A stretch of DNA of 48,822 nt from the IMG/VR virus record IMGVR_UViG_2541047788_000006. One strand, written 5' to 3'. The notes under the pieces were generated by a model, which did no database searches, was not told the origin of the DNA, and was given only the letters and a program-made list of their open reading frames with translations. This stretch comes from a virus. Its lineage: Duplodnaviria; Heunggongvirae; Uroviricota; Caudoviricetes. Below are positions 35,722 to 44,067 of this stretch, piece by piece (position 1 is the first letter of the stretch; each line of letters begins with the position of its first letter). Made by a program: the position numbers and the translations under genes.

Positions 35722-35973
35722 TTATTCTTCTGCAAAAGCAGAAAAGCCAGCTTTTATTCCGATCTCTTTCAATGCCTGTAATGAAGTGACAAACTCACCT
35801 TCGCGCAAGATAAATCCGTCCGTGACCCGAGCATCCACAAAATTAATTAACGCAGCCCCATTCTTTCGCAAACACATAATGCGGTAATGACTAACAAGAT
35901 TTCCATTTTCAACGCACACAGCATAGAGGCCATCTTCACAAAAAATTTTACGCAGTTCTTCGATGTTCATCAT
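35722..35973 (-). CDS. hypothetical protein
   Basis: 83-aa ORF between the hok terminator and the rem-position ORF; no recognisable motif. Confidence 0.4.
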   Translation of the reverse strand: MMNIEELRKIFCEDGLYAVCVENGNLVSHYRIMCLRKNGAALINFVDARVTDGFILREGEFVTSLQALKEIGIKAGFSAFAEE

Positions 35974-36189: not shown

Positions 36190-36345
36190 TTACTCCTCAG
36201 GTTCGTAAGCTGTGAAGACAGCGACCTCCGTCTGGCCGGTTCGGATTCGTACCTCGCAGAGGTCTTTCCTCGTTACCAGTGCCGTCACTATGACGGTTAA
36301 ACAGATGACGATCAGGGCGATTAACATCGCCTTTTGCTGCTTCAT
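36190..36345 (-). CDS. hokD: Hok-family type I toxin
   Basis: 51 aa MKQQKAMLIALIVICLTVIVTALVTRKDLCEVRIRTGQTEVAVFTAYEPEE; the ORF track's in-frame upstream extension (to 36402) would be mok-like leader. Confidence 0.9.
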   Translation of the reverse strand: MKQQKAMLIALIVICLTVIVTALVTRKDLCEVRIRTGQTEVAVFTAYEPEE

Positions 36346-37467
36346 AGCCTGCTTCTCCTTGCCTTTCGGCTCGTAAGAGGCTAACCTACATGTGTCTAGC
36401 ATGAAATTGGCCTCAGATTAATGTTAAGCGTCTTGCAGGACGCGTAATGTTAACTGGGGCTTTTCTCTATCTGCCTTTGGTGTTCATGCCCGAGGCAGAT
36501 AGCCTCAAGCACCCGCAGCCATTCTACTTAACTACCGTTACCTCGCCAATATGAAATCAGTCAGAAAGGCGATCCATAAGAACAATAGCAAGACAATAAA
36601 TCGCCATTACAGCCGTAATAGCCAGCGCACATTTGAGAACCAGCACCACAACCTCCTGTATTGGACGTAGACCAGTCCTGATGAATATGAGGCTGTCTCG
36701 TCAGTGATTCAATACAACTATTGGGTATAGTTTCTCTGATTTTTTCTGTGGAAATGGGGCACAACCACTAGTCACCACCAGCACTTCTTTTAATACGCAA
36801 AGTCCGACACAAGCTAACCTTCTAGTCCGCTTTGAGCGAAAAACAGCCATAATTTAGTGCCACGTATATAATGATAGAGCTATTCAAGCTAGCAATTCAC
36901 ATGTAAAAATTCAGAGGGTAGAAGCACATAGTTATAAATGTTGGCTCCATCGACAAATTGCGGTCTCAAGTACATTTATTAATGTTGCCCCCGCATTAAC
37001 AAATCATCAAGGTGACGACATGGACGATATTAATATCAGCCTCGACGAACTTAACACTATTGATTTATCCCCCTTAATCCAGAGTAAGCTGCCAGTTACC
37101 TGCTTTGATATCACAAAGTATCTTTCTAGCCTAGGTGATGGAAGAGCGGAGATAAGACTGCTAACCCATATTTGCGGTTTTCACTTTCGTCCCGAAAATC
37201 CACAGGTACCATTTGGTCCGTGCTTTCAAAGCAGCCAAGGTAGATCTGCAATTCCGGATGACATTAACGGGTTGTCGCTGGAGGTACTTTCTCAATTTTG
37301 CCCGACGATAGAGCTACCCGAACTTCAAGCTCGTATTGCTGATACACTTTGGGTTCGTAAAATTGGTGGAATCCGTTTTCCTTTGCTGGCAGTCCGTGCT
37401 TATTATGCGTCCAGTATAGCTATTATGACATCGCAAGGGACGTGGGTTAGTGCTTTAGAACGCCTAG

Positions 37468-38662
<1,195 letters not shown>

Positions 38663-42134: not shown

Positions 42135-42345
42135 TGTTCAACCGCCCCGCCCGCTTCGTCTTACGATATTCGTCATAAACCTTGGGATCATACAGAAGCT
42201 CGCCGCCAGATGCCTCCTGTAGACGCATCGCGCGACCTTCAGGAACCAGCTCTTGCCATTGAGAAACAGCAGATGGGTCAACGCCAGCAGCTTTCGCTAC
42301 TTTGGCTTTCGTACCGTAAAAATTAATTACGTCTGATTTAAACAT
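42118..42345 (-). CDS. dicC: Cro-like regulator DicC-type
   Basis: C-terminus ...VPEGRAMRLQEASGGELLYDPKVYDEYRKTKRAGRLNNENHS matches DicC as recalled; divergent from the dicA-like gene; start at MFKSDV (the ORF track extends to 42372). Confidence 0.75.
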   Translation of the reverse strand: MFKSDVINFYGTKAKVAKAAGVDPSAVSQWQELVPEGRAMRLQEASGGELLYDPKVYDEYRKTKRAGRLNNENHS

Positions 42346-42354
42346 CGCACCTCC

Positions 42355-42410
42355 AGTATTGAGTTTTCTCAATGCTAATCACTCAAGGAATCTCAAGTCA
42401 AGGGTTATTA
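42355..42410. promoter_or_regulatory. candidate operator region between divergent dicC-like and dicA-like genes
   Basis: Palindrome TTGAG-TTTT-CTCAA (42359..42372) and nearby direct CTCAAG repeats in the intergenic region. Confidence 0.35.
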
Positions 42411-42422
42411 AGATATCTAAAT

Positions 42423-42830
42423 ATGAACGAGAAAACTTTAGGTCAACGCATTAGAGAAAGACGTAAGCAGGTAGGTTTAAGTCAAAACGGTTTAAGCAAA
42501 GCTGCTGGCGTATCTGGCTCATCAATTTCATTATGGGAAAGTGACCATACAGCCCCGCGCGGGCAAAATTTGCATCGCCTCGCCGAGGTATTGCAATGTT
42601 CACCAACCTGGATACTGTTTGGCGACGAGGACAAAACACCAGCTCCCCCTGTTTCACTCGATAGTGCCTTAGACTTATCGGAAGATGAGTTAGAGATGCT
42701 GCGTTTGTATCGCGCACTTCCTAAATCAGAGCAACAAGCACAACTCAGCGAACTCCGCGCCCGCGTTGAGAATTTTAATCGCCTGTTCACCGAGCTATTA
42801 GAGGCTCGCAAACGCAACAAGCATCAATAA
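42423..42830 (+). CDS. dicA: HTH_XRE-family repressor (DicA/CI-like)
   Basis: 135 aa; N-terminal HTH (LGQRIRERRKQVGLSQNGLSKAAGVSGSSISLWE) and ...VLQCSPTWILFGDEDK... resembling DicA as recalled; start at the ATG 42423 inside ORF 42372..42830. Confidence 0.8.
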   Translation: MNEKTLGQRIRERRKQVGLSQNGLSKAAGVSGSSISLWESDHTAPRGQNLHRLAEVLQCSPTWILFGDEDKTPAPPVSLDSALDLSEDELEMLRLYRALPKSEQQAQLSELRARVENFNRLFTELLEARKRNKHQ

Positions 42831-43022
42831 TCATCCCTTCACAAAATTTTAAAGCCTTACATTTCAATGTATTGGCTTTATCTTGCGCCAATACTTGAGT
42901 TTTCTCATCAAAAAGCCTTGGCGAAAAATAATGAGAAAACTAAATTACCTCCATCAACACACCGCACGGTGTTCTCAGCAAACAGTTCCGCTACCCCGGC
43001 GTTAAGGGGAAATGAGGTCAGC

Positions 43023-43178
43023 ATGGATACTATCGATCTTGGCAACAACGAATCTCTGGTGTACGGCGTGTTTCCAAACCAGGACGGCACGTTCACCGCA
43101 ATGACGTATACCAAAAGCAAAACGTTTAAAACCGAAAATGGTGCCCGTCGCTGGCTGGAAAGAAACTCAGGTGAGTGA
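43023..43178 (+). CDS. ydfA: small protein YdfA-like
   Basis: 51 aa MDTIDLGNNESLVYGVFPNQDGTFTAMTYTKSKTFKTENGARRWLERNSGE; first gene of the dicB-type operon. Confidence 0.6.
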   Translation: MDTIDLGNNESLVYGVFPNQDGTFTAMTYTKSKTFKTENGARRWLERNSGE

Positions 43179-44014: not shown

Positions 44015-44067
44015 TTTCTGGTGACGTTTGGCGGTATCAGTTTTACTCCGTGACTGCTCTGCCGCCG
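44015..44067 (+). ncRNA. dicF: DicF small RNA (ftsZ-targeting sRNA)
   Basis: Sequence TTTCTGGTGACGTTTGGCGGTATCAGTTTTACTCCGTGACTGCTCTGCCGCC matches the 53-nt DicF sRNA as recalled; followed by GTTTTT; located just upstream of dicB. Confidence 0.8.

Follow-up and report, generated by a model that had tools for sequence, protein, structure and literature searches.

A 48,822-nucleotide stretch of Escherichia coli chromosome (hereafter the window, meaning the whole of the DNA that was analyzed) harbors, at the Qin site and beside a truncated ydfJ, a lambdoid prophage. Within this prophage, a short gap separates two divergently transcribed regulatory genes and contains palindromic sequence, which raises the question of whether the palindromes are operators and, if so, for which proteins and for what kind of switch. 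A preliminary description had placed a 77-bp intergenic region here, between dicC-like and dicA-like regulators, and had read it as a bistable immunity switch. Both the coordinates and the length are exact, with the gap occupying positions 42346-42422 between the ATG of the cro-like gene (42345, minus strand) and that of the repressor gene (42423). The palindromes are real, and comparison with related regions indicates that they are most likely repressor operators of an ordinary lysis-lysogeny switch of the lambdoid/P22 type. More specifically, the gap very probably represents OR, the right operator, in an immunity region of the P22 type that belongs to a Qin-family, mEp460/HannyBb-like lambdoid prophage. 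The features on which this reading rests are collected in Table 1.

Table 1. Genes, predicted promoters, candidate operators, and RNA features of the immunity region and of rem; positions are those of the window, and a dot marks features assigned to neither strand.
Feature	Position	Strand	Basis or remark
rem, likely antirepressor gene	35725..35973	-	tblastn, 97.6% identity with K-12 Rem
cro-like (DicC-like) gene, 75 aa	42118..42345	-	Pfam P22_Cro 3.2e-16
O1 (OR1/Oc equivalent), perfect 6-4-6 palindrome ATTGAGTTTTCTCAAT	42358..42373	.	
Cro-ward promoter (PR/dicCp equivalent), predicted -10, TAGCAT	42372..42377	-	Consensus scan
O2 (OR2/Om equivalent), degenerate, CTCAAG-GAAT-CTCAAG	42382..42397	.	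Position; alignment with P22 OR2
Repressor-maintenance promoter (PRM/dicAp equivalent), predicted	42386..42414	+	Homology with P22; -35 AGGAAT (42386-42391), 17-bp spacer, -10 TAAGAT (42409-42414)
Cro-ward promoter, predicted -35, TTGACT	42396..42401	-	Consensus scan; 18 bp to -10
O3 (OR3/Oa equivalent), ATTAAG-ATAT-CTAAAT, ATTAAGATATCTAAAT	42407..42422	.	Adjoins repressor ATG
Repressor gene (DicA-like, 135 aa)	42423..42830	+	HTH_3; P22-c2-type HTH domain and short C-terminal part
Terminator-like hairpin, then UUUAUCUU	42850..42880	+	3' of repressor stop codon
OL distal operator, CTTGAG-TTTT-CTCATC	42894..42909	.	Upstream of early-left promoter -35
Early-left promoter (pL/dicBp equivalent), predicted	42918..42946	+	Alignment with P22 pL and K-12 dicBp; -35 TTGGCG (42918-42923), 17-bp spacer, -10 TAAATT (42941-42946)
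OL proximal operator, AATGAG-AAAA-CTAAAT	42930..42945	.	Over spacer and -10 of early-left promoter
ydfA (DUF1391), first gene of OL-controlled operon	43023..43178	+	Pfam DUF1391 1.7e-28
DicF RNA	44016-44067		Rfam DicF 72.5 bits

The naming of the two flanking regulators as dicC-like and dicA-like was borne out by Pfam, by identity with the K-12 proteins, and by matches to P22 structures. The cro-like protein has 70% identity with K-12 DicC and matches a P22 structure, that of Cro (1rzs, 1.9e-12), and its ATG is preceded at a distance of 4 nt by a GGAGG Shine-Dalgarno sequence (CCTCC on the plus strand, 42350-42354). The repressor shares 57% identity with K-12 DicA, and its residues 1-72 match the DNA-binding domain of P22 c2 (1adr, 2r1j, and 3jxb; 1e-14 to 8e-16). 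Unlike P22 c2, which has 216 aa and a RecA-cleavable C-terminal domain, the repressor of the window has only 135 aa, no S24 peptidase domain in Pfam that could serve for self-cleavage, and a C-terminal part that does not align with the C-terminal domain of P22 c2. Judged by these features of its sequence, the repressor is a member of the DicA/Gifsy subclass. In the annotation of phage HannyBb, the same gene begins at the ATG at 42372 and encodes 152 aa, but this codon is ATA in the relatives L006 and L090; because the upstream start is not conserved, the start at 42423 is the right one. The terminator-like hairpin behind the repressor gene folds as RNA at -11.3 kcal/mol (z=-3.3), with 0 of 200 shuffles as good, and a consensus terminator scan made no call there.

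In phage lambda, OR lies between the divergent cI and cro genes and contains three sites about 24 bp apart, the strongest of which is nearest cro, and the repressor mRNA is almost leaderless. The gap resembles lambda OR in its divergent cI-like and cro-like genes and its site spacing of about 24 bp and, by prediction, in having its strongest site nearest cro and a nearly leaderless repressor mRNA. However, the proteins and operators are unrelated to those of lambda in specificity, lambda CI is RecA-cleavable, and the sites of P22 and of the window are placed differently from those of lambda relative to the -35 of PRM.

Alignment with P22 and with K-12 Qin supports reading the gap as an immunity switch. 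In K-12, where the dicA-dicC immunity region of Qin has been described by Yun et al. 2012 (PMC3441716) and, as cited in PMC10448788, by Bejar et al. 1988, DicA and DicC form a bistable switch in which DicA is not RecA-cleavable (PMC10448788). DicA acts as a repressor of dicC and an activator of dicA; in vivo it binds Oc, a 20-nt inverted repeat, and the cloned sites Om and Oa showed no DicA binding in the in vivo assay (PMC3441716). The gap aligns position for position with both the OR1-OR2-OR3 region of P22 and the dicC-dicA gap of K-12 Qin with its Oc, Om, and Oa. The alignment with P22 OR runs base for base over O2, the -35 of PR, PRM, and O3. Within an 18-bp site, the P22 repressor makes its contacts at positions 2-7 and 12-17 and leaves the central four bases uncontacted, and its Kd depends on these central bases, at 4.3 nM for an A-tract, 14.4 nM for T-A, and 57.6 nM for C-G (PMC4267663). 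Judged by sequence, the sites of the window fit this form of six contacted, four central, and six contacted positions with A/T-rich centers (PMC4267663).

The likeness to K-12 Qin extends beyond the gap. Both prophages occupy the same chromosomal site and share the order YdaT-like, dicC, dicA, ydfA, dicF, dicB, ydfD, and both have a 135-aa repressor, a strong palindrome after the -10 of PR, a site by the repressor ATG, and two sites bracketing the -35 of the left promoter. The window has what defines a DicA/DicC module of the Qin family, namely homologs of DicA and DicC, ydfA-dicF-dicB downstream, and rem on the same element. Two differences stand against these likenesses. Qin is a 20-kb remnant, whereas the prophage of the window appears complete, and the half-site ATTGAG of the window takes the place of GTTAGT in Qin. 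The K-12 Oc sequence TTGTTAGTCATAACTAACAA is absent from the 77-bp gap, where the operator is ATTGAGTTTTCTCAAT instead.

Within the gap, three candidate sites can be distinguished. The palindrome TTGAG-TTTT-CTCAA noted in the preliminary description is present at 42359-42372 and grows by one base on each side into the perfect 16-mer of O1. This site aligns with P22 OR1 and K-12 Oc, and it includes the final base of the PR -10 as well as the point at which cro transcription is predicted to start. O3 agrees with the O1 consensus at 10/12 half-site positions. O1 and O3 are clear sites (0 and 2 mismatches) with the top two scores of the weight matrix introduced below, while the middle site is correctly placed but degenerate and scores at background level. 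The CTCAAG pair of the preliminary description does exist, with copies at 42382-42387 and 42392-42397, and its halves do run in the same direction instead of being inverted. As a direct repeat, however, the pair is not conserved; Buttiauxella has CGCAAG-GAAA-CTCAGG at this place. The pair is better taken as the two halves of the degenerate palindromic operator O2. O2 occupies the PR spacer and the edge of the PR -35, its center is 24 bp from that of O1 and 25 bp from that of O3, and it aligns with the P22 OR2 palindrome CTAAAG-GAAT-CTTTAG. Its right half is a good half-site, reading CTTGAG on the other strand as does the left half of the OL distal site, and its left half is poor. O2 is the weakest part of the operator model. 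The third site by the repressor ATG, the middle-operator nature of the CTCAAG pair, and the two early-left sites had been overlooked in the preliminary description. Two further matches were set aside. One candidate for a fourth site, AACGAGAAAACTTTAG at 42426-42441, falls among the opening codons of the repressor gene; it is not kept in Buttiauxella and was regarded as a coding coincidence. A half-match in the 3' coding part (GTTGAGAATTTTAATC, about 42765-42780) sits in the conserved RVENFN codons and was not counted.

The predicted promoters are arranged around these sites. Among 17 distinct gap haplotypes, which were drawn from 86 loci and are related to one another, the -10 of PR has the form TAnnAT in 16, the exception being TAGCTT, and its -35 is TTGACT or TTGACC in all 17. 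On the plus strand, the AGTCAA of this -35 is invariant in an alignment that includes P22 and K-12 Qin. The hexamers and spacing of PRM are identical to those of the promoter annotated in the P22 record, in which the RM transcript starts 4 nt ahead of the c2 ATG. Since PRM shares these elements with P22, and since the repressor ATG at 42423 has no Shine-Dalgarno sequence ahead of it, the repressor mRNA is predicted to start near 42420 and to be nearly leaderless. By prediction from the sequence, the divergent PR and PRM overlap the operators as they do in P22.

The operator sequence recurs at a second, early-left promoter, where one site lies on either side of the -35 hexamer. A 13-mer of O1, TTGAGTTTTCTCA, has an exact second copy at 42895-42907, within the OL distal site ahead of this promoter. 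In Buttiauxella L006 the distal site is the perfect consensus ATTGAGTTTTCTCAAT, and the proximal site is likewise kept in Buttiauxella. The OL region of the window aligns with P22 OL and with K-12 dicBp, and it shares with P22 a two-site layout about the TTGAC -35, with the start motif CCATCA downstream; the predicted start is the A at 42953 within this motif, which is also found at the annotated start in P22. By reading of the sequences, the centers of the two sites are 36 bp apart, compared with 35 bp in P22 and K-12 Qin. The -35 hexamer is TTGACG in 73 of 79 loci, and the TTGGCG form occurs in the window only. Unlike in P22, no clear third OL site was found in the window. About 24 bp upstream of the distal site there is only ATTGGC..GCCAAT, which lacks the invariant A and G of the half-site, overlaps the terminator-like hairpin, and was rejected. 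Downstream, ydfA is followed by DicF and, beyond it, by dicB and ydfD, whose names are those annotated in a 99.98%-identical record.

Palindromes of this kind could also arise by chance in A/T-rich promoter DNA and serve no specific function, and simple counts are compatible with such an origin. When the 77-bp gap is shuffled, 2.2% of the shuffles contain a perfect 6-4-6 palindrome, a share that rises to 15% once every spacer length of 0-8 is admitted, and the number of matches to ATTGAG-N4-CTCAAT with <=2 or <=3 mismatches across the whole window is not above expectation, although all three matches with <=2 mismatches fall in the immunity region. The exact 16-mer alone is not diagnostic either. 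When IMG/VR was scanned for it and 80 returned loci were read, 48 had a DicA-like gene, and in 47 of these the 16-mer was as far from the gene start as O1 is, but the remaining 32 had none and mostly represent chance occurrences in unrelated-looking sequence. A search of IMG/VR with the repressor added little diversity, as almost all copies that it returned are 96-100% identical. Because enrichment across the window was at chance level, it was replaced by tests of position, of a cross-genus matrix, and of conservation.

For the cross-genus test, a symmetrized weight matrix was built solely from eight Buttiauxella prophage sites and used to scan the approximately 48,800 positions of the window. 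The first four ranks fell to the sites starting at 42358 (O1), 42407 (O3), 42930 (OL proximal), and 42894 (OL distal), in this order, and O2 came 10th, no better than the best background scores. In the prophages of Buttiauxella ferragutiae and B. gaviniae, whose repressors are 73-76% identical to that of the window, O1, O3, and both OL sites are kept and the sequence between the sites has changed. Among the 17 haplotypes, 3/16 columns vary in O1 (at its outermost positions only), 4/16 in O2, 0/16 in O3, and 18/29 in the rest of the gap. For O1 and O3 together against the rest (3/32 versus 18/29), Fisher's test gives p=2.7e-5, a value that is indicative only, since the haplotypes are related. 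It is these comparative tests, rather than the simple counts, that contradict pure chance, and together with the exact copy of the 13-mer at the partner promoter and the positional homology to characterized operators they make a chance origin extremely improbable.

An effect at the RNA level deserves equally little credence. In this reading, the leader of the cro-like mRNA would fold into a hairpin at the palindrome and thereby influence stability or translation, and O1 does lie in the predicted 5' leader of this mRNA, just upstream of the Shine-Dalgarno sequence. The fold is weak, however (-3.1 kcal/mol, z=-0.7), and is matched by 44 of 200 shuffles, so O1 was rejected as an RNA hairpin. In addition, the motif recurs upstream of a -35, where it would not be transcribed from that promoter, and it occurs in both orientations.

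The operator reading is retained over chance and over an RNA hairpin, and the question becomes how many of the sites belong to the repressor. The most serious rival to a three-site OR holds that only O1 and the OL pair are repressor sites, that O2 is promoter spacer in which CTCAAG happens to occur twice, and that O3 is kept only for the -10, the start site, and the leaderless start of the repressor mRNA, or for Cro, or for both. The failure of Om and Oa to bind DicA in K-12 (PMC3441716) points in this direction, as do the low matrix rank of O2 and its alteration in Buttiauxella. In addition, O3 is unchanged in Citrobacter braakii L008, where both O1 and the recognition helix of the repressor differ, and it follows the helix of Cro instead. 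Against this, O3 has near-consensus half-sites and the second-best matrix score, O2 occupies the exact midpoint between O1 and O3 and corresponds in the alignment to an OR2 that is palindromic in P22, and the K-12 assay used isolated sites, so that cooperative filling would have been missed. Taken together, this restricted scheme is a contender to be reckoned with but is doubtful, and a right operator with three sites is preferred.

The comparison among lineages also bears on specificity. At the same positions, the half-site is ATTGAG in the window, GTTAGT in K-12, GTTGAG/GTTAG in C. braakii L008, and TTTAAG in P22, and in the same order helix 3 of the repressor reads SGSSISLWES, SHVSVSQWER, SHATISLWES, and SNVAISQWER. 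Relative to P22, the half-site of the window has G where P22 has A (TTGAG versus TTAAG). The repressor is 44% identical to K-12 DicA over residues 1-54, 38% over the HTH part (9/24, residues 21-44), and 65% over residues 55-135. Given the differing half-sites and the differing recognition helices, the prophage of the window and K-12 Qin are probably heteroimmune. The operator specificity is new relative to the literature searched, where searching full texts for the 13-mer turned up no paper, and the kind of operator, that of P22 and DicA, is known.

The constancy of O3 may have a different cause from that of O1. Since O3 is identical in L008 despite the changes in O1 and in the repressor helix, the repressor may contribute less to its conservation than does Cro, or than do the functions of promoter and start codon. 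The four loci with the common O3, L008 among them, also share the motif SAVSQW in helix 3 of Cro, a motif that K-12 DicC is without, which hints that O3 is chiefly a Cro site, as is OR3 in lambda, with one lineage being informative on this point. It is conceivable, though we would sooner expect the contrary, that O1 and OL with the repressor helix, and O3 with the Cro helix, evolve as separate specificity pairs within one 77-bp region, and that Rem acts on the better conserved C-terminal half of the repressor. The suggestion about Rem arises from the 97.6% identity of Rem between the window and K-12, set against the much lower identity of the DNA-binding half of the repressor and the intermediate identity of its C-terminal half. 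If this were true, one antirepressor could induce several heteroimmune prophages of the Qin family at once.

By analogy with P22, the switch would operate as follows. Dimers of the 135-aa repressor would recognize the 16-bp ATTGAG-N4-CTCAAT, corresponding to positions 2-7 and 12-17 of an 18-bp site of the P22 style, with no protein contact to the A/T-rich center. Repressor bound at O1, with its A-tract center, would cover the cro-ward -10 and +1 and would silence the cro-like gene together with the replication and late genes behind it. O2 would be a weak site in the PR spacer that is filled cooperatively, if at all. O3 would cover the -10 and +1 of the nearly leaderless repressor promoter, such that its occupancy would stop repressor synthesis, and it would most likely be occupied first by the Cro-like protein. 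At the early-left promoter, the two OL sites, which bracket the -35 and cover the -10, would silence the ydfA-dicF-dicB-exo-xis-int transcript in the lysogen. The predicted order of affinity is O1 (perfect halves, TTTT center), followed by the OL sites, then O3 (ATAT), and finally O2 (GAAT, with a poor half).

Because the repressor is without an S24 autocleavage domain, induction would be expected through an antirepressor, presumably Rem, rather than through RecA-stimulated cleavage. In K-12, Qin-encoded Rem relieves repression by DicA (PMC10448788), and the product of rem in the window likely acts in the same way on the DicA-like repressor. A comparable arrangement is offered by the Gifsy repressors GfoR and GftR, which are short and under antirepressor control (Lemire et al., as cited in PMC10448788). 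The repressor of the window resembles them in being short, in having neither an Ala-Gly cleavage site nor an S24 domain, and in having an antirepressor gene on the same prophage. In contrast to the Gifsy antirepressors, which are LexA-controlled, no LexA-like box was found near rem, and the only CTG-N10-CAG matches, four weak ones, all lie elsewhere.

Whether such a switch still governs a phage depends on the state of the prophage. The window is 99.96-99.98% identical to a prophage of strain 118UI, whose annotation lists tail, head, terminase, portal, capsid, lysis, antiterminator, rem, hokD, replication, and immunity genes, as well as ydfA, dicB, ydfD, exonuclease, excisionase, and integrase. 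The prophage is in reverse orientation in the window and runs to the integrase gene at the right end. It could nonetheless be a fossil like that of K-12 Qin, in which the operators work but no phage is made and the module controls dicF, dicB, and other genes that affect the host. Such decay might be suspected from the position of the prophage at the Qin site beside the truncated ydfJ, from an IS5 insertion at 37468-38661, and from the weakened early-left -35 that is peculiar to the window. However, a DUF4209 gene, which is accessory, is all that the IS5 disrupts, the annotation of the closest record runs from integrase through tail genes with the flanking ydfJ as its sole pseudogene, and the immunity region is 98.5% identical to that of phage HannyBb and 97.8% identical to that of mEp460_ev081. 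Both are isolated phages, and mEp460_ev081, which has dicAC, dicBF, and rem, is cited as functional (PMC10448788). In view of the full gene set and of the identity shared with isolated phages, a fossil switch is the less likely reading, and we consider it improbable. The prophage looks complete, in keeping with the earlier suggestion that it is regulated rather than fossilized.

The understanding of such switches is unchanged by these results, as this kind of switch is well known and only its DNA specificity had been undescribed. What they provide is a testable operator map with five candidate sites, three predicted promoters, and an expected order of affinity. The immunity type concerned is common in E. 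coli, with about 800 of 5,426 complete genomes carrying most of the 1.1-kb immunity region, and it is also present in HannyBb and mEp460_ev081, which were isolated as gut phages.

The region that separates the cro-like (DicC-like) and repressor (DicA-like) genes is flanked by a perfect 14-nt inverted repeat (ACGCCAGCAGCTTT at 42281-42294 and AAAGCTGCTGGCGT at 42498-42511). The repeat encodes the residues KAAGV of the helix-turn-helix in both divergent genes, with identical codons. In the record of phage HannyBb (L002, 6273-6731), the repressor is annotated as a protein of 152 aa whose ATG lies inside O1 and the PR -10 element. This start was rejected, as relatives do not conserve that ATG, and the HannyBb annotation is therefore probably 17 codons too long.

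Downstream of the repressor gene, a terminator-like hairpin closely follows the stop codon and precedes the OL distal site (Table). A simple terminator scan made no call at this hairpin, and Escherichia whittamii (L015) carries a clearer hairpin with a T-run at the equivalent position. The -35 element of the predicted early-left (dicBp-like) promoter, located at 42918-42923, reads TTGGCG in the window only, while TTGACG occupies this position in 73 of the 79 related loci and TTGGCG is also absent from strain 118UI, which is 99.9% identical. An A-to-G substitution at 42921, private to the window, would make the predicted promoter of the toxic dicF/dicB operon weaker, or TTGGCG could alternatively be a sequencing error.

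Table. Features located in the window outside the operator sites.
Feature	Coordinates	Strand	Details
Terminator-like hairpin, then UUUAUCUU	42850-42880		-11.3 kcal/mol, z=-3.3
DicF small RNA	44016-44067	+	72.5 bits; within OL-controlled operon
sok antitoxin RNA	36340-36514	-	116 bits; adjoins hokD
rem	35725-35973	-	97.6% identity to K-12 Rem
IS5	37468-38661		InsH transposase, 338 aa, at 37500-38516

The presumed target of Rem, the product of a likely antirepressor gene, is the repressor, which shares 57% identity with K-12 DicA (44% in the DNA-binding half and 65% in the C-terminal half). Since Rem is 97.6% and the repressor 57% identical to their K-12 counterparts, the comparison suggests that Rem recognizes the conserved half of the repressor and could work on repressors of different immunity types. 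The vicinity of rem contains no LexA-like box. The IS5 element interrupts an accessory DUF4209 gene starting at 37020; strain 118UI lacks this insertion and instead carries an IS200 near its tail-fibre genes that is not present in the window.

The same operator core also occurs in an unrelated metagenomic phage (L103, 1300-1560; also L160), where ATTGAGTTTTCTCAAT and TTTTGAGTTTTCTAAA lie approximately 55 bp apart between divergent genes for a 127-aa XRE-type repressor and a 76-aa Cro-like protein. A tblastn comparison of the L103 phage with the DicA-like protein detected no similarity, and the operator sequence common to this phage and the window may be shared or may have arisen by convergence. 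E. coli prophage immunity regions were further observed on contigs labelled as Bacillota, Veillonella parvula, and Collinsella metagenome-assembled genomes (L004, L005, and L009), with these taxon labels most likely reflecting binning contamination. L004 and L005 carry the immunity region of the window with a 100% identical repressor, and L009 carries one of the K-12 Qin type.
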